A DNA stretch of 63,686 bases, filler included, from Bonamia ostreae (lineage: Eukaryota), in the NCBI GenBank assembly GCA_040357525.1. It is 54 parts of 54 records of this genome, joined end to end, with 100 filler letters (N's around TTAATTAATTAA, not from the genome) between each part and the next. Parts side by side here need not be neighbours in the genome. Positions count along the whole stretch, not along the records: positions 16,621 to 17,705 come from JBDODL010002765.1; 53 more parts are not named here. The stretch is one strand, 5' to 3'. Within the stretch, counting starts at the first letter, position 1, and every line of letters begins with the position of its first letter. This document shows positions 1,190-40,011 of the stretch, piece after piece. Both the position numbers and the translations under genes were made by a program. The notes below the pieces were generated by a model that ran no database searches, was not told the origin of the DNA, and saw only the letters and a list, made by a program, of their open reading frames with translations.

Positions 1190-1480
1190 ACATGGGTTTC
1201 AACAGTCTTGTTTAAAATTTTATGGTTGCTATGATGATCTAAGTTACTAATGCAACTAACACTGGGTCATTGCTGTCTGACGTGCTTCATACGAATTGTC
1301 CTGTTGTTCTTTGCATTCTGAATTTGACTACAGATTACTCCGATTACGTGATTAAGATAAATGATTCATGGGTCTGTGACCAATTAAGAGGGGATGTTCA
1401 CTTTTCTATGCACCTAATCCCACTTCTCTTGTGGGTCCAGTGGTTCGTCTTTGATGTGTGTTATGTTGTAAGTTCCTTTT
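1190..1480 (+). mobile_element. Degenerate 3' end of an oyster-type Penelope-like retroelement (RT C-terminus plus terminal repeat)
   Basis: Decayed reading HGFQQSCLKFYGCYDDL...MLSDVLHTNC, followed by the GTGACC...GGGGATG...GCACCTAATCCCAC repeat also seen in five other contigs. A second copy lies at about 1605-1750. Confidence 0.65.
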
Positions 1481-2378
1481 CGAATGACGCAATTCATCAA
1501 AATTTAAGGTTTTGGATTTAAACACATTTGATATCTCAGTAAATGTGATGAATGAATTTAAATCATTGTACATATATCAAAGCTTCAAAAACCATCAAAA
1601 ATATGCGTGCTCACATTGTGGTGACCACTCAACCGGGGGATGCTTATTCCTCACAGGCGCATGGGTCCACCACCTATCCTTGTTGATTTTGTATTCTGTA
1701 TACGACATTGGAGATGGATCACTATACATTACCGTTTTCACTCCTATTTTTTCGTTCCAACTAAAAAAGGGCACTATATAATAAAACTATAACTACAGTA
1801 GTAAGCTATAACGAGGATTTATCTTTTTATCAATATTTTTCGAAATTTGATTATTCATTACCAATCATTTACATACAATCACAGACAATGGAGTAATACA
1901 ATGAAGTCAAGCTATAAACCGATATCAGTAAATACATATAAAGACAGTTCGATGATCATTTAAAAAATTTCCGAGATAAAGCATATGTATGAAATATAAT
2001 ACAATAACACAGAGAGGTCAGTTCTGAAGTTTTATCCACACGAATCACAGTAAATCAGATTGTAGATTTGACTTCCATTTCTGTTTTCTCAAATGCTTGT
2101 TTCTTCTCCGAAGGTTCGATACAATTCTTGGGCATTTTGTTACCTAAATTTCCTCTTCTCAGCCTGTGAAATGTAATGTAATGCATGATAATTTCACTCA
2201 AAGTAATTTGTCAAGTGACTGGCTAATTTGAATTATTCATATATTGTATATTTTTGTATAATATTTTCTTTTTTTTTTNNNNNNNNNNNNNNNNNNNNNN
2301 NNNNNNNNNNNNNNNNNNNNNNTTAATTAATTAANNNNNNNNNNNNNNNNNNNNNNNNNNNNNNNNNNNNNNNNNNNN

Positions 2379-3466
2379 AAATAAAGTACACTAATCTTCC
2401 TTTAGGAACAAAAATTCTCAGCCGTTCGGCCTCAAGACGATTTTTGCTTGCTCTTTTTATTTTTTTAATGCCGCGTTCCAATTCCTTCCTGCGCAAAACA
2501 CGCAATCGATTGATCACAACTTTGCTGAAACCATATTTTTCTATCAATCTCATCAACTCTCGATCTCGCAATCGACAAAAATTATAAGCGACCAACGGAG
2601 ACTCTAAAAGCACTCCAATTTTCGCAAAATAATCTGTTTGCAAATCGTAGAATGTCTTCGATTAAAATATTGTTATGTACACATTCAAAAAAATTGTTTG
2701 TAATGTACATATTCAACAAAATTGTAACATTTTTGTAATGTACATATTCAACAATTAAGTTAAAAAAAAACTTCATCTTTAACACCAAGAGCACTTAGTA
2801 ACATAACGGATTGAAGAGATAGATAAGTCAAATGAAACGGAGTTGAATAATTAACGATTCCGAGAAAATTCTTGTCATGTTTTCCTTCGAAAACGTTAAA
2901 CTTGAGCATCGATTCGCGAAACTGGATTTTGTTATGAAGACTTTTCTTGAGCAACAAAATCCCTTTGAAGCCAAGAAAACGTACTTGGATCACGGATGGC
3001 ATCGTTTCAACGATTTTTTTGTTGTCTTCTAAGATTTTGCACGCTTTGGAGATTATGTCTGCTGAGACGAATCCGCATCCGTCTGTGAAGTTGAAACCGT
3101 TCGATTTGATGTCCGGAATCTTTTCCCATTGAAGATGTTCTTTTAATTTTTTCGTTTTTGAATTAAGCGATTTTCAAATTTGGAAAACCGATTTCGAATC
3201 CAATTCTCAGAGACGAAAACAGCAAACCGATTCTTTTCGATCGTTTCTGTGTGTCTGGAATTAGTGAGAAATCTCCCAATTGGTGGATCATCTTAAAAAT
3301 CGTTTCCGGCGTGCCTCTGTAGAAGAAACATGCTTCGTTTCTTGAAGGAGACGATCCTGCAAAATTGTAAGCGCCGTCTTTTTTGTTAAAAAATATTGTA
3401 ACAACAAAAACAGTTAAAGCAAAAAATTTTGTTGGCAACAACAAAAATACCAAAAATCGAATTGAA
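2379..3466 (-). CDS. Cellular RNA-dependent RNA polymerase (RNAi-type RdRP), internal fragment
   Basis: The spliced translation contains LGDFSLIPDTQKRSKRIGLLFS, IPDIKSNGFNFTDGCGFVS, PSVIQVRFLGFKGIL, FRESMLKF, MLLSALGV and RIFVPKGRL. These are the ordered motifs of the eukaryotic RdRP family. Three GT-AG introns, including 2656-2771. Confidence 0.9.
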
Positions 3467-3622: not shown

Positions 3623-4468
3623 ATGAACAAACTACTTGTTTTAATAATTCTGCTATTCCGTTATGTCTATCCATATCCTTTAGTGATATTAGTTTCTGAG
3701 CAGAAAGTAACGTATTGTGCTCATTTGGGTGATAAAGAAAAATCAAAGACAACAATTTCAAAATTTGTTGGAGAAGCAAATGTTTTTTCGCAGAGACATT
3801 TCGACTACATTGTTATCCTTGGTGAATTCCAATTTTACAATGAAAATGTTAAATAATTAAATATTAAACTTTAAATTTAAAACAAGTAAAAATTTTTTAT
3901 TTCTAATCATCAACTTAAAGTCTGCTGAATCAAATAACAACGCAAAGTTTTCTTTATCAAGATTAGTTGTGATAAACCAGGAAATCTCGAAAATTTACTT
4001 AATGTAAAAAATCGAAAAGTAAAAGACACCGAAAATATAAAAGATCGATTAGTTGCAATCTTCGCAACTTCTTCAAACAAGGGCCATTATCACTTTTTCC
4101 CAAATGTTGATACAGAAGAATATGTGATGGCTTACCAAATAACAAAATATCTCGAAAAAACACTTTTAGCATCTGTCGGAAAAGTAGCTGGAGCGCCTGT
4201 GATTTCTAAAACAACTTTAAACTACTTAATGGCGGATGTTGATTCTGACCAACCTATATTGGTATCAAAGGAAACAAATTTTGCTATTAACAATTTTTTC
4301 AGGTTGTTAAGAGATCGAAAACCCTCTCTTCCCTTCGTTCGGGTCCTAAGAGGAACGGATTACGTTTTGACCGAGTCTAAATATTTCATTCCGGCCATAG
4401 CATCCACACTTGGTGTTATCATCATTGCTGCTTTTACAGTTGTTCTGCAATTGTTTCTCAATAAATGA
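3623..4468 (+). CDS. Complete type I membrane protein (signal peptide plus C-terminal TM helix), about 250 aa, function unknown
   Basis: Exons 3623-3847, 3921-3946 and 3967-4468 (introns 73 and 20 nt) give 251 codons including the stop. N-terminus MNKLLVLIILLF, C-terminus IPAIASTLGVIIIAAFTVVLQLFLNK. Confidence 0.65.
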
Positions 4469-6288
4469 ACACAGAAAATTTTTGTTTACATTAAGTTGTT
4501 GTTTTGTGTGCACAACTCGTGAAGAATAAGCTTAACGAGTCAGTAGTTGGGACTAAGTGCGCATTCTTGAATGAATGGGTTTATCCGAGCTGATATCAAA
4601 ACGGAGAAGAAGATCTATCCGAACTCCTAATTTGACTGGGGTTGCCATAAAAGGNNNNNNNNNNNNNNNNNNNNNNNNNNNNNNNNNNNNNNNNNNNNTT
4701 AATTAATTAANNNNNNNNNNNNNNNNNNNNNNNNNNNNNNNNNNNNNNNNNNNNTCACCTTTCATTGTATGATCCTTTATTTTGTAACGAATGGATATTG
4801 GCTTAGTGGGTGATTGACGTAACTATCCACAGTCCTTATTGCAATTTAAGGATATGGTTATTTGTTAAAACACATTGTAGGATGCTCCCATCTGGTCAAG
4901 ATTAATATCAAGACTATTAGAGGTCAAAAATGGGCACGAGTTTCTAATGTTTCTGTACTTTACAGAAATTCCGTTGGTAAATTGACACAGGGAAATGTAC
5001 GACGTAAAATGTTCCTTCATCCAGTGTTAAGCATTTAGAATTGAGAGTTCCGTGAAAAGTCCCACCGTTGACACGATGGAGAACTTAAATTGATACTACC
5101 TTGAGCATACATAGTTCATGGGTCTAATAAAGTATTTTAATATTAATGAAAAATTCAGGACTCAGATGCACTTTGAAATAAATAAAAAATAAATGAAATT
5201 AATTTCTATATGAGCAAACAATATGCACTGATTGTGAACCAGGTGAAGGCATCTAGCATATGGAAAGTACAAATAAATGATTGATTATTTTATTGTGATG
5301 ACAAGGATTATTCTGACCCAAAAGCAGAATTTGGGGACCTCAGGAATAAGATAAAATATATCTTTTTCAAGCTTTATATTTCATTTATCTTTTTTTGGTC
5401 ATATATTTTCTTGCCTCGCGGAATGTTCAGCTTTTGATGTTTTGAAAAAAAAAACCATGAGTTGATAATATTAGTTGTGTACTAGAAGTTAGATATGAAA
5501 ACATCCATAAAATAAATAAAAAAGAGCTTCCATTTAAGTTTGCCAAAAATCATTACAGGAAAAATAATATTTACAAAAAAAAAAAGAAGTTCAGCGGTGA
5601 AATTGACAGATTGGAAATGGGACTATTAAAATTGGAAAAGTGAAATTGGAAAACAAAAACCGGAGAGAGAAAAGGTGAGGAAGAAAAAGAAAATAACGAG
5701 CAAAGCGATTAAAAAAATCAGAAAGGAAATTTGAAATTTTACCTGTCAGAGCAGAATGTTATGCTGCTAAGATATTAGACTAAAACTAAAACTAAAACGT
5801 CATCGTCATTTCGGATTTCAAGCATTTTGATTGAGTATCACTNNNNNNNNNNNNNNNNNNNNNNNNNNNNNNNNNNNNNNNNNNNNTTAATTAATTAANN
5901 NNNNNNNNNNNNNNNNNNNNNNNNNNNNNNNNNNNNNNNNNNTAAGTTTCATTGGATATATAAAAGAAAAGTAACTCAAACATATTTCATACCGAGTTTG
6001 TTAGAGCCAACTTTCCATTAAATGTACACAAAATTTTCCTTTTTTCCCCTGATTAAATACAAATATGAGAAGGAAACACAGACCAATGGAAATGCCCATA
6101 GGTTATTAACATTTTGTACTTGAAAAAGTTAATTAAAATTCATAAGTCTTTAAAAAGTCAATACAATAATTGATCAACATCGAAGTCTGTAGTAAGTCCA
6201 CTCTTACACACTCCACCAACTCACTCAGTGCGTCCAACTCTCTTCGAAGGGGGGAGGTACCAGGGGCCACACGGGTGAATCCATCACA

Positions 6289-15302: not shown

Positions 15303-16720
15303 CTTTTTCGATTAAAATGGTTTTTCGATTTTCGANNNNNNNNNNNNNNNNNNNNNNNNNNNNNNNNNNNNNNNNNNNNTTAATTAATTAANNNNNNNNN
15401 NNNNNNNNNNNNNNNNNNNNNNNNNNNNNNNNNNNACCGCGAGCCTCGACTACAATGATAAAATATGTAAAGTGAGTGCATAACACAAAAACGAAAATGA
15501 TTTTGAAATTTGAAGCAAATTATACTTTGTTGCTACACCCACGTCCCATGCAATTTCCGATCGACACTTGAAAATGTAAGGGCATCTGTAACACATAAAA
15601 TAGACAACTATAAAAGCGACATAATATATGGTATGTATTACATTAAAGTAAAATCATTCGAAATATCAAACGAAGATTATTCTCTGCATCCGTTTACAAA
15701 ATATACATGCATGTTCATGTAAAATACCAAGAACAATTGGATACCTCAAGATGGAGGGTATGTTCCTTATTGATAAACTTCTGGAAAGTTTCCGTGTTAA
15801 TGAAAGACGAACAGCTCCATTTCGGACAGGCTATAATCAATTTCGATTTTTCAATTGATCCAACTGCAATCTGCAGACATTCCAGACAAAAGGAATGTGC
15901 GCAGTCTTGAATTACTGCTGTTGCCTAAAAAGAACAGGTTCCCAACACTTGCACCAATAGTTATTATATGCCTTTCTAAAAATCATTTGCAAAACATCTG
16001 TGAATCACACCGCCTTAAAGGCTTAACACTCGCTGATGGTACATAACCGGTGAAAGTACTAGGAGTTATATTCACTACAGTTTTGATTCACTCTTTCGGG
16101 AAAGTACCGAAAATGGAACTGCAACCATTGAAGGTTTTGAAAAGTTATACAGAAAATATTTTCTGGAAAGAACTCCCTCCAAAAGCTATCCATAGTGTGA
16201 CCTCTCGTTCAATTTAATCATTGTTTCACTATTCTGAGTAACCATAGGTCTGCATGTTTCTTATATTTGATTGTGGTTTGCACCTACTAAACTATTTGAT
16301 CTATATCCATTGCTAGTGTGTTTCCCCAGCCAAAAACTGAATGGAATTAAAGATACTAGATACACCCCTTGGCGGTGACATTTTCCATTACCTCCCTTCC
16401 ATAGTTAAAGTTCATTTATTTGAACTAAATTATTTTGATATACTCATTCGATCTACATTGATACATTTCTATATAGGTTTTGTAGAAAGTAAACATAGTT
16501 TCTAGATGAAAGGTAAAAATNNNNNNNNNNNNNNNNNNNNNNNNNNNNNNNNNNNNNNNNNNNNTTAATTAATTAANNNNNNNNNNNNNNNNNNNNNNNN
16601 NNNNNNNNNNNNNNNNNNNNTTTAAAAATTGTAAAAATTTGTTTTTGTCAAAAATCTTAAAAAATTTTTCTTTAAAAATCGTAAAAATTTTATTTTCCCG
16701 AAAAATTTTAATCGATAAGA

Positions 16721-16814
16721 TCTGGAGATTAAATCTCAACTTGGCGACGCCAAAGAAAGCAACACGGTAAAGAATGAAGATATTGAAAATTTACTCAAAA
16801 AATTTGCAGATTAA
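16721..16814 (+). CDS. Last exon of a gene, weakly resembling an ESCRT-III (CHMP2-like) C-terminus
   Basis: After an AG acceptor it reads LEIKSQLGDAKESNTVKNEDIENLLKKFAD-stop. Convergent with CNOT9. Confidence 0.3.
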
Positions 16815-16896
16815 ATGGCAAAATTTTACCATCTTGACAAAAATTTCTAATTTTCAAATTTGCGTTTTACAATAAAACAAAAAAATTAAAAACGAT

Positions 16897-17668
16897 TCAG
16901 TCCCTCAAACTAAGATTGTGAATTAACTGGTTGAGCCATTTCTGAGCATCGCTGTCTCTGCTCAGCAAATGTTCGAACGCATTTGTTCTCAACGCGCTCG
17001 GCAAACATTTTCTTAGAGCGTTCCTCGCTCTTAAAATTCAGCAAAAAACTTTCTGTTTGCCGAAAGACATAAATAACAGTGAATAATGTGTTTTAACAGT
17101 CGAATCGAGTTTTTGTTAATCATTTTCTCCACTGTTTCTCTTTAAGGAATTTTAGTAAATTTTGTCAGCAAAAATTTTGCAAAACATCAACACGTCGCTG
17201 ACGGAGAAAAATCTATCCGACGTGGCACAAACGTATTCGAGACCTTGTCGATCGATGAGGATTTTCTGGATGATGTAGGCTGCGACGGTCTGTGAAATTT
17301 CTGTTGCTTCCCTTAAGATCTTCAGACAAAGCGGGACGATTTCTGTTTGGATGAGATATTTTACGACTTCGGGGTCGTTTGACTAATTTATATCTATTGA
17401 ACTTGCAACAGCGACCCGAAAACGCCGAGCCCAGTTAATCTTATTTTCTCCAAATTAACGCTTTTGTGATGGCGAATGTTTATAAACGGGAAGATGTACA
17501 GAGGAACATTGGCTAAATTAGGAGTAGAAAACATTCTATGAAAACGGTTCTGGTTTCCGGGTGCATTGCTATGCATTGCATTATTGCCAGAGAGTTACAA
17601 CAACGAGTCGAAATTTCCATTTGGAGTTTCTCGGGATAATGGAGATAAGGATAAACCGACAGCAACTC
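16897..17668 (-). CDS. CNOT9: CCR4-NOT subunit 9 (Rcd1/Caf40), 5' partial
   Basis: RCCNSLAIMQCIAMHPETR...RLTGLGVFGSL...TEIVPLCLKI...RLLKHIIHCYLCLS...ARNALRKCLP. Introns 17513-17532, 17383-17402 and 17030-17049 (each 20 nt) and 17140-17185. Confidence 0.93.
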
Positions 17669-17805
17669 CTTTGTAAAATGTCGGGAAATTGTTACAAAAA
17701 ATATTNNNNNNNNNNNNNNNNNNNNNNNNNNNNNNNNNNNNNNNNNNNNTTAATTAATTAANNNNNNNNNNNNNNNNNNNNNNNNNNNNNNNNNNNNNNN
17801 NNNNN

Positions 17806-28462: not shown

Positions 28463-29419
28463 GAGAACATCGTCCATGATCTGAAACGACAGCCCCAAAT
28501 TTTTCCCGTATCGAAAAGCGTTTTCGACCGTCTCATCGTCGCAGCCCTTCAAAACAGCGACGGATTTGCAAGAATTGGCGATCAGAGAAGCCGTTTTCAG
28601 AAAGTTTTTGTGACAATAAGTGTTGAGCACTGTCTCCAAATCAAAGCCGTCACCTATTTCTATCCGAATCAGTTCGCCGTTCACCAGATCTTCGATCGAA
28701 CTCGAAATCAGTTTTATGACTTCGTTGTCGCCCAAAATCGCCAAACTTATTGAAGCTTTGGCCAGAAAGTAGTCTCCGCCGAGAATGGCTACTTTGTTGC
28801 CGTATCGTTTTCTCACCGACTCTCCGCCGCGACGAGAATCCGCTTCATCGATCACGTCGTCGTGGAGGATGGAACCGGTGTGCACCAATTCGACTATTTC
28901 GGAGAGCCGCTTTTGTCTCTCGAAAACGCCGCGATAGTCCAATCCGTTCGTGTCGGCGAGGTCGGCCGTCCGCGCGACTTTTTCGGATCGGGTCGGAGAG
29001 CAGTTCTGGAGCGCTTTCGATAGCAACAGAGTGATGCTCGGACGCAGTTTTTTGCCTGACCGCTCTACGATGTGGCGCATTATCGCAGACAAAGACGGGT
29101 TTTGCCCGGAAACGATTTTGCTTTGGTTGGCGAAGAAAACGTGAAGTTGTGAGTGAACTCGTTGAGACTGGCTTTGATCAAATGGAATGGGTTTGAGTTG
29201 ATGTCTAGAGCGTCCATCTTCGAGGCCAGGTTTCTGGCTTTGGCTCTGTTGATCGCTTTAATGTAATTTTCGGGGGAAATCGCTTTTTTGGAAAGGCTTT
29301 TTAGAGTGGATAATCCAAAGTTCTCGGCGAGCATCATCAAGTTTTTAAAGCTAAATTTGGTCTGCTCGAATTTTTACGTTCTTTGTATAAAAGCTGTTTT
29401 GGGCGGTTTGGATTTTTGT
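28463..29419 (-). CDS. COQ1: Long-chain trans-polyprenyl diphosphate synthase (Coq1/PDSS1), partial
   Basis: SGKKLRP, ELVHTGSILHDDVID (FARM), RRG, GNKVAILGGDYFLAKAS, KTASLIANSC and FQIMDDVL (SARM). Introns 29121-29140 (20 nt) and 29351-29377 (27 nt). Confidence 0.92.
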
Positions 29420-39481: not shown

Positions 39482-40011
39482 ATGGCGATTCTACACACTG
39501 ATGTTTTAAATAATAATTTAGATCGAAGTTTTGTGTAATAAGGAATTGAAACAAACAAACATCCTTGAAATCGATAAAGATCTACTCGACATAAAAAACA
39601 AAATCTTGAAGGCTCACCAGGAGAACAAAGAATTTAAATCCGATCTCAAAATGGATTTGATCGGGAGTTTTCTTTTGGGCAGCATAATTTTCGACAACAA
39701 ATTAGGTGTAGACATTGCTGTATACACCGAAAAAGTTTATTTTGCCAATATAGGACTTCTTCGAAGAACTTGATATATATTCTCGTGTATATTTTGAAAA
39801 AAGAAAACGTTTTGCTGCGTTTATTCAAAACGCTCTAAAGAATATATTTGACCAAATCGACTTAATTGAAGATTCTGCTTTTTATCGCCCTATTTTGACT
39901 ATCCAACATCTAGTTAATGGCAGAATGGTCACTTATAATTTCTTTATGTGCACTTATTATTCAAGTGTAGACTTCGCTAATATAACGCCATTAAATTCTA
40001 AGCTAATAAAA
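39482..40011 (+). CDS. NOL6: NOL6/Utp22 (Nrap) N-terminal region, 3' partial
   Basis: LIGSFLLGS...VDIAV...FFEELDIYSRVYFEKRKRFAAFI...RPIL. Two 19-nt introns (39503-39521 and 39735-39753) restore the frame. Confidence 0.75.

Follow-up and report, generated by a model that had tools for sequence, protein, structure and literature searches.

Two U1 snRNA genes and two coupled classes of 5′ splice site in the tiny introns of Bonamia ostreae

Bonamia ostreae is a haplosporidian (Ascetosporea) and a parasite of oysters. The window that we analyzed, a stretch of 63,686 nucleotides, is a chain of contigs of approximately 1.08 kb with N and linker sequence between them. On the minus strand, positions 16621–17705 encode a CNOT9/Rcd1/Caf40 protein (match to Caf40 in the PDB, E = 9.3e-19). 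Joining of open reading frames across GT...AG, performed blind to the donor sequence, placed four introns of 20, 20, 46, and 20 nt within positions 17030–17532 of this strand, and the Pfam profile for Rcd1 is tiled by the five resulting exons with neither gap nor overlap. The first visible exon (17533–17705; Rcd1 42–88, E = 1.2e-10), in front of which the start of the gene is cut off by the contig end, is followed by intron 1 (17513–17532), a 20-nt intron with a GTTTT donor, a TAG acceptor, and A at –7 and –6. Exon 2 (17403–17512; Rcd1 90–124) is separated by intron 2 (17383–17402; 20 nt, GTTCA donor, TAG acceptor) from exon 3 (17186–17382; Rcd1 126–189), which yielded the Caf40 match. Intron 3 (17140–17185) is 46 nt long and has an AAG acceptor and a branch-like run of A from –14 to –11. 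Exon 4 (17050–17139; Rcd1 192–219), intron 4 (17030–17049; 20 nt, GTTTT donor, AAG acceptor, A at –9 and –8), and a last exon whose translation ends at a TGA stop (16897–17029; Rcd1 222–260) complete the gene, with all of these features lying on the minus strand.

A first-pass annotation of the window had described atypical splice signals at 17030–17532. The four introns at these positions are real, but the third of the sequences it quoted lies outside this range, in another contig of the window, where ORF joining predicts a 19-nt intron with a GTTTA donor and a TAG acceptor (39735–39753, plus strand). The gene finder described below predicts one further 20-nt intron, with a GTTTT donor and an AAG acceptor, at 29121–29140 on the minus strand. 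Within 1190–2278 (plus strand), GTAAGT was noted as the donor of one trial intron, which may represent contaminating DNA or a false prediction.

The genome assembly (G000) comprises 10,293,246 bases in 7,503 contigs. One of its exons, from a NOG1 gene, is 100% identical to a protein labeled Bonamia ostreae at NCBI, and the identity of the next matches does not exceed 71%. RNA confirmation of introns comes from one of these, contig L016, with the CNOT9 introns resting on ORF joining and Pfam. Nine stretches of 19 to 24 nt in L016 are missing from RNA contigs of two runs from two studies, seven of them in run X1, whose RNA nature is presumed, and two in run X2. All nine have GT...AG ends, so that the ends and the removal from mRNA that characterize U2-type (major) introns were both found; eight start with GTT and one with GTAAA, and one RNA contig lacks the GTAAA intron and GTT introns together. 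A single RNA contig over L016:2855–5046 covers introns of both strands (3273–3293, plus; 4137–4941, minus), suggesting that convergent genes overlap here at their 3′ ends.

Raw counts of GT...AG distances were barely raised at 19 to 21 nt and were set aside in favor of a gene finder, which was trained on retrieved DNA, scored coding content, and demanded no more of a splice site than GT and AG. When the length penalty was flat, introns of 19 or 20 nt made up 74 of the 231 predicted, a peak that is consistent with dependence of splicing on intron length. The main run, which covered 770,621 of the 10,293,246 bases with a milder penalty for lengths of 17 to 26 nt, predicted 377 introns and recovered seven of the nine RNA-confirmed introns exactly. 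From these we took a high-confidence set of 161 introns of 18 to 24 nt for which both flanking exons were at least 45 nt long and had a score of at least 8 (84 genes, 47 loci), and compared it with a control set of 6,587 GT..AG stretches of 19 to 20 nt. A Pfam scan of 138 exons found 19 neighboring pairs that share a family, of which 14 join to within two residues, two to within five, and three are uninformative; continuity was counted by hand with one WD40-repeat pair excluded, and most junctions of the GTA class lie outside Pfam cover. An in-frame alternative GT is present no more than 6 nt away in 24 of the 161 introns.

Donors of the high-confidence set began with GTT in 139 cases and with GTA in 15. 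The frequency of T at +3 (139/161, 86%) far exceeded both that in the controls (45%, p = 6e-27) and that in the intron interior (37%), and T at +4 was present in 96 of the 161 donors (60% versus 36% in controls). The first-pass annotation had listed GTTTT, GTTTA, GTTCA, GTTAA, and GTTTC in place of GTRAGT; these pentamers account for 89 of the 161 donors and GTRAG for a single one, so that the core of the description is real. Its statement that +5 G is lacking holds in the sense that G is not selected at this position (15% versus 17% in controls), but not literally, given that 24 donors carry it. Only one of the 15 GTA donors has G at +5, and the lack of selection in both donor classes indirectly favors a relaxed check of +5 G and hence the altered or relaxed U6 ACAGAGA pairing that the first-pass annotation proposed. 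T at +5 was likewise unenriched (61/161, 38% versus 35%), as were G at +6 (20% versus 17%) and C at +7. On the exon side, A at –2 (95/161) and G at –1 (67/161) were both enriched, with G the commonest base at –1, whereas T at –1 was depleted (17/161, 11% versus 36%).

The acceptors were AAG (63), TAG (53), CAG (40), and GAG (5), with AAG at its background frequency (39% versus 40%) and GAG depleted. Pyrimidine bias was limited to two bases, –6 and –5 (72% and 71%, compared with 51% and 52% in controls), in agreement with the earlier description of TAG and AAG acceptors that lack a polypyrimidine tract. A was enriched at –8 (106/161, 66% versus 34%) and was present at –7 in 84 introns. An expectation-maximization (EM) fit to the 161 introns assigned 72% of the branch weight to –8 and –7 and approximately 2% to –5 and –6, with a weak context of Y-(A/C)-A, and the branch A is therefore likely, as modeled, to lie at –8 or –7. 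The earlier claim of a branch A only a few nucleotides before the AG fits the tiny introns alone: in the 46-nt CNOT9 intron, A is absent from the stretch –10 to –5, and a set of 25 longer introns showed no sharp peak of branch A. The claim of a CTAA/CCAA/TAA/CTGA-like element was overstated as to the motifs, CTAA occurring in 12, CCAA in eight, and CTGA, at the control level, in two of the 161 introns. Lariat loops of 12 to 15 nt, also proposed earlier, are predicted by the branch fit for 129 of the 161 introns. T occupies –13 in 57% of 20-nt introns.

Positions +3 and +4 were not independent. GTAA, GTAT, GTTA, and GTTT numbered 13, 0, 11, and 93, respectively, among the 161 donors, corresponding to an odds ratio of approximately 220; the same ratio was 5.0 for the controls and 4.9 for sequence inside introns. 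A broader set, of 233 introns, gave 23, 0, 16, and 134. GTA donors have A at +4 in 13 of 15 cases and T in none, even though these introns contain more T than any other base, and a result of 13 of 13 for GTAA over GTAT has a probability of 0.002 at the control rate. The coupling was maintained in the flat-penalty run, in introns whose length is not a multiple of three, and under stricter cut-offs until the numbers run out, with a single GTAA donor left at the strictest (p = 0.08). The GTAA class consists of only 13 donors, all predicted; RNA confirms one of these, and Pfam continuity another. The two classes were not separated by intron length, acceptor, branch position, or contig GC content, and among genes with at least two confident introns, all eight that have a GTA intron contain a GTT intron as well.

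The first-pass annotation had suggested that the 5′ end of U1 is altered in this organism, and an Rfam search of the genome revealed one U1 gene, complete and with such an end; a second U1 gene, with an ordinary end, was located through an upstream element that it shares with the first. The first gene (L035:766–924, minus strand; contig G000:C1288; E = 3.5e-10 in the genome search) covers the full Rfam U1 model (RF00003, 1–166) with E = 7e-11 and 47.4 bits, which falls short of the gathering score (69.5). It possesses the four-way junction, stems I to III, the 70K and U1A loops, the Sm site, and stem IV at the 3′ end, with loop I (GAUCAAGAAG) identical to the consensus and the U1A-type loop containing one change; its fold has a z score of –2.5. 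The 5′ arm reads (GC)AAAACAU, compared with the consensus ACUUACCU, and, given that it is not ACUUAC, we refer to this copy as the variant U1. The standard register places AAAAC opposite GUUUU. The donor and flank of CNOT9 intron 3 (GAT/GTTTTGC, exon/intron) are the full complement of the variant arm.

The second gene (L101:1560 to the contig end; contig G000:C414) starts AAACUUACCUG and contains the ACUUAC arm, stems I and II, and the U1A loop. It is visible for 116 nt, with the Sm site and stem IV lying beyond the contig end, and this truncated piece matched the Rfam U1 model with E = 1.6e-4 and 23.5 bits. Its loop I (GAUCAACAAU) differs from the consensus at three places and its stem I carries a 17-nt insert. 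Outside the arm the two copies are identical at 64 of 87 positions; 11 of 19 comparable base pairs are the same, seven are changed on one side and yet still paired, and one is broken, so that pairing is retained in 18 of the 19. Because of this identity and these retained pairs, the comparison of the two sequences indicates a duplication within this lineage rather than acquisition of host DNA. When metagenomes were searched for sequences related to the variant U1, 11 matches were obtained, but U1 features did not follow downstream in any of them.

U11, which has neither a 70K nor a U1A loop and whose donors are RUAUCCUU, does not account for the variant gene, for which U1 gave the best score and in which both loops are present; no donor in the set starts with GTATC (0/161). 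Candidate U12-type donors were rejected, the 64 matches to the U12-type motif (versus 23 for the reversed motif) being paralleled by equally frequent neighboring words and showing no evident intron context. A short zf-U1 protein is encoded at L150:676–810 (plus strand; G000:C1044), which we take to resemble ZMAT5 (U11/U12-20K); such a ZMAT5-like sequence might hint at the presence of a minor spliceosome.

Both U1 genes share a promoter with other small RNA genes. A 15-nt element has five exact matches in the genome, all upstream of small RNA genes (U3, U4, U5, and both U1s), and TATATA lies 16 to 18 nt behind it in all five. The ordinary arm begins 44 nt behind the element, and the promoter spacing suggests that the first nucleotide of the variant U1 is either the G or the first A of the arm. 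The promoter, a TCCCATAA element plus TATA, was observed on G000:C238, C308, C414, C1288, C1871, C280, C3561, and C34, and its layout resembles the USE-TATA arrangement of plants. It is also found upstream of RNase P RNA (L154, E = 4.4e-17), of a C/D-box snoRNA-like RNA (L164), and of an RNA-like stretch from L062:6970 onward.

Pairing energies calculated in a fixed register divided along the donor classes. GTTT donors had a mean energy of –2.95 with the variant arm and –1.30 with the ordinary arm, whereas the values for GTAA donors were –0.38 and –4.83, respectively. The variant arm paired better with 69 GTTT donors and the ordinary arm with 23, and for GTAA donors the ordinary arm was preferred 11 to 2. 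Averaged over all donors the two arms were nearly equal (–2.09 and –2.02). The 46 GTT[ACG] donors pair weakly with either arm (–1.2 and –2.4); G is present at –1 in 26 of them, compared with eight of 44 GTTTT donors, an excess that suggests assistance on the exon side, either by U5 loop 1 or by the ordinary U1. Our own prediction from the variant arm, that T would be favored at –1, G at +6, and C at +7, failed among the 161 donors.

Other components of the spliceosome were also sought. U4 (94 bits), U5 (68 bits), and a candidate U2 (21 bits) were identified in addition to the two U1 genes, so that the genome search for U1, U2, and U6 proposed in the first-pass annotation succeeded for U1, yielded a candidate for U2, and found no U6. 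U5 (L102:227–368, minus strand; G000:C1871) has a conserved loop 1. An extra 5′ hairpin of approximately 33 nt precedes its Rfam match, and two promoter elements stand in tandem. The U2 candidate (L021:368–514, minus strand; G000:C951) has an intact GUAGUA, a longer stem I, GCC in place of GCU, and two extra U residues between GAUCAA, which pairs with U6, and the branch-pairing region; no snRNA promoter element was detected nearby. The candidate may represent a relic or one of two copies; alternatively, the additional residues may provide slack for tiny lariats. The protein U1-C is conserved and was found once, and Luc7 is present. A very AT-rich contig with sequence similar to small- and large-subunit rRNA (L022:1–2932; G000:C7503) is probably mitochondrial.

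For U6, the Rfam search of the genome gave no match at E = 0.001 and 20 at E = 10 (best E = 0.2), five of which were read and none of which resembled U6. A catalytic-core pattern gave 12 matches in the genome, none convincing, and a pattern complementary to the 5′ end of U4 gave 10, one being U4 itself and none U6. Two promoter-led searches likewise revealed no U6, either among 30 sequences read and 20 scanned with Rfam from 100 listed of 247 matches, or among 17 loci read and 12 scanned from 29 matches at 20 places. The most likely explanation is that U6 is absent from this fragmented assembly, and these negative results are not evidence of its loss. Two of the weak matches, L089 (G000:C197) and L091 (G000:C12), are alike over approximately 90 nt and probably represent a small repeat or paralogous gene ends rather than U6. 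METTL16 is present, with a match to PF05971 (E = 1.5e-35) on G000:C606, the NH2-terminal part on G000:C1632, and an NPPF motif. The METTL16-like gene thus extends over two contigs (L166, corresponding to G000:C606, and G000:C1632), and its methyltransferase domain probably contains an intron that starts with GTTCT.

On the basis of these comparisons, the variant U1 is probably a reader that has co-evolved with GUUU donors, and we consider it reasonably probable that the two U1 RNAs divide donor reading between them, the derived one serving GUUU and the ancestral one GUAA. The introns would be ordinary GT-AG introns of the major spliceosome that have shrunk to approximately 20 nt. The U1 gene would have been duplicated, with the arm of one copy (G000:C1288) changing to AAAAC and so pairing with GUUU(U) donors, now the majority, and the other copy (G000:C414) retaining ACUUAC and reading the GUAA donors, which are in the minority, together perhaps with weak GUU donors that have G at –1. 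Both RNAs would be expressed. The U1 duplex would be short and rich in A-U pairs, extending from +1 to approximately +4 or +5 and leaving G at +5 unchecked, so that even within 20 nt U2 would have space to pair around the branch A. A branch A at –8 or –7, approximately intron position 13, would give a lariat loop of 12 to 15 nt, and U2 pairing might extend over approximately +8 to +14, the first base of such a helix being matched by the T that 57% of 20-nt introns have at –13. Pairing with the exon end is an established role of U5 loop 1, and A at –2 and G at –1 are probably paired with the conserved loop here. Intron length and a nearby AG may carry much of the specificity. Several observations count against division of reading between two U1 RNAs: T is depleted at –1; +5 T, +6 G, and +7 C are at background; the 46 GTT[ACG] donors are poorly paired; the two arms score alike over all donors; the ordinary-arm copy has an altered loop I, an insert in stem I, and a 3′ half beyond the contig end; and the GTAA class is small, with one donor left at the strictest cut-off. 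In its most specific form, with two co-essential U1 snRNPs serving GUUU and GUAA codes in the same transcripts, the derived one leading, +5 G checking dropped, and U2 and U6 altered for 13-nt lariats, the proposal is tentative, and we give it slightly less than an even chance.

We also considered whether the AAAAC copy might be the sole working U1, as in Entamoeba, with the ordinary-arm copy a decaying relic and the GUAA donors leftovers that are spliced with the help of proteins or exon-side pairing. This replacement appears unlikely. The altered loop I and insert of the ordinary-arm copy, its score of only 23.5 bits, the position of its 3′ half beyond the contig end, and the small share of GTA donors (15/161) would all suit a relic, but its promoter element is exact, TATA is at the same spacing, and 18 of 19 pairs are kept; the GTA donors, moreover, have A at +4 in 13 of 15 cases and never T, despite the T-richness of the introns. 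Nor does the genome show the single replaced U1 and strict GUUUG donors of the Entamoeba type, given that there are two U1 genes and that GTTTG accounts for 12 of 161 donors.

Donor choice might instead depend little on U1, with length, branch A, and AG defining the intron, U5 holding the exon end, and both the GTTT bias and the variant arm reflecting drift in AT-rich DNA. The low information beyond +4, the background level of +5 T, the conflict of –1 with the variant arm, the weakness of the predicted duplexes, and the sharpness of the length peak all accord with such a scheme. We nevertheless regard it as improbable: T at +3 is far above both control and intron interior, the arm differs from its paralog exactly where it faces +3, +4, and +5, in an RNA whose structure is otherwise preserved, and drift does not predict two coupled classes.

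An equally small probability attaches to a donor code set by U6, in which an altered or unmethylated ACAGAGA box would favor U at +3 and +4, as in species that have lost METTL16. G at +5 is unselected in both classes, as such a code would have it; loss of METTL16 or SNRNP27K accompanies a preference for +4 U in the available account (PMC10581693), and GUUUGU in Entamoeba could pair better with U6 ACAGA, according to the corresponding part of the Entamoeba study (bioRxiv 10.1101/2022.06.08.495308). Against this stands the presence of METTL16 with its NPPF motif, as a result of which the route to +4 U through METTL16 loss is inapplicable, and a single U6 would explain neither two coupled classes nor a rewritten U1. 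Finally, an artifact, in which the GTA donors and the ordinary-arm U1 derive from host or contaminant DNA or the GTT bias is created by the gene finder, is suggested by the fragmentation of this parasite assembly (7,503 contigs) and by the in-frame alternative GT in 24 of 161 introns, but is largely refuted and highly improbable, given that the two U1 genes are mutually homologous and share the promoter of U3, U4, and U5, that the contig of the ordinary-arm copy carries a gene with predicted GTTTC and GTAAA introns, that the gene finder is blind beyond GT and AG, and that the nine RNA-confirmed introns comprise eight GTT and one GTAAA.

The pairing arm of U1 is among the most conserved RNA sequences of eukaryotes, and how a genome with thousands of introns changes both this arm and its targets is an open question. 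Two U1 arms together with two coupled donor classes are the intermediate to be expected if the gene is duplicated, the copies diverge, and introns shift from one to the other, a course that is testable across related genomes. If the most specific form of the proposal, with two co-essential U1 snRNPs, is true, B. ostreae would show in nature a splice code that is in the course of change after duplication of an snRNA, and splicing might be controlled separately for each class; the findings also bear on the minimum size of introns and on gene annotation in this group of parasites.

Most lineages with odd donors retain the standard U1 arm, according to the available part of a preprint by Roy and Bowser that covers Entamoeba (bioRxiv 10.1101/2022.06.08.495308). 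Entamoeba itself has GUUUGU(U) donors and a co-evolved U1 arm, ACAAAC, with one U1 candidate per species; as in Bonamia, U occupies +3 and +4 and the U1 arm has A at the facing positions, and the branch of E. invadens lies at approximately –8. Entamoeba differs in that +5 G and the facing C are kept, the donors are strict (97–98% GUUUGN), and intron density is low, whereas Bonamia has two U1 genes, has lost the facing C (AAAAC), and has degenerate donors in two coupled classes and introns of approximately 20 nt. The same source remarks, without data in that passage, that standard and modified U1 variants coexist in Physarum polycephalum, as they do in Bonamia, and describes U1 with ACGUAC in Mastigamoeba, a compensatory change in the arm of the kind seen here; unlike in Bonamia, these are single-base changes at +4 (bioRxiv 10.1101/2022.06.08.495308). 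No analysis of donor classes in Physarum or Mastigamoeba was found in the literature searched.

The diplonemid Sulcionema specki also has two U1 genes with differing arms, the 5′ end of the alternative U1 being rich in C, but the part of the study available describes both as comparably complementary to the canonical donor logo (PMC12621601), whereas the two arms of Bonamia fit separate donor classes, the larger class being that of the variant. Mikrocytos mackini, another member of Ascetosporea, shares tiny uniform introns (16–17 nt) with Bonamia but has 224 introns in total and a reduced spliceosome, with only U2, U4, and U6 identified in the account consulted (PMC10245619); Bonamia genes are, in contrast, intron-rich, and the components found include two U1 genes, U4, U5, a U2 candidate, U1-C, and Luc7. 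Fritillaria borealis resembles Bonamia in that duplication of a splice-site reader serves a new class of intron, although the duplicated reader is U2AF and both versions of U1 have identical 5′ ends, and the authors of that study suggest in the text available that duplicated U1 genes may be limited in how far they can diverge (PMC13326754); in Bonamia it is the U1 arm itself that has diverged. The switch linked to METTL16 and SNRNP27K shares the preference for +4 U, but there METTL16 is lost and the available text describes it as occurring without compensatory change in U1 or U6 (PMC10581693), whereas Bonamia retains METTL16, is changed at +3 as well, and has one altered U1 arm. The main text of a genomics paper on the clade terms Bonamia introns "canonical" and does not contain the word snRNA (PMC11069148). 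In the main texts of the literature searched, we found no account of Bonamia donors, donor classes, or two U1 genes. The precedent for GUUU donors with a co-evolved U1 is thus Entamoeba, and what is new here is the pair of U1 genes whose arms match two coupled classes of donor.
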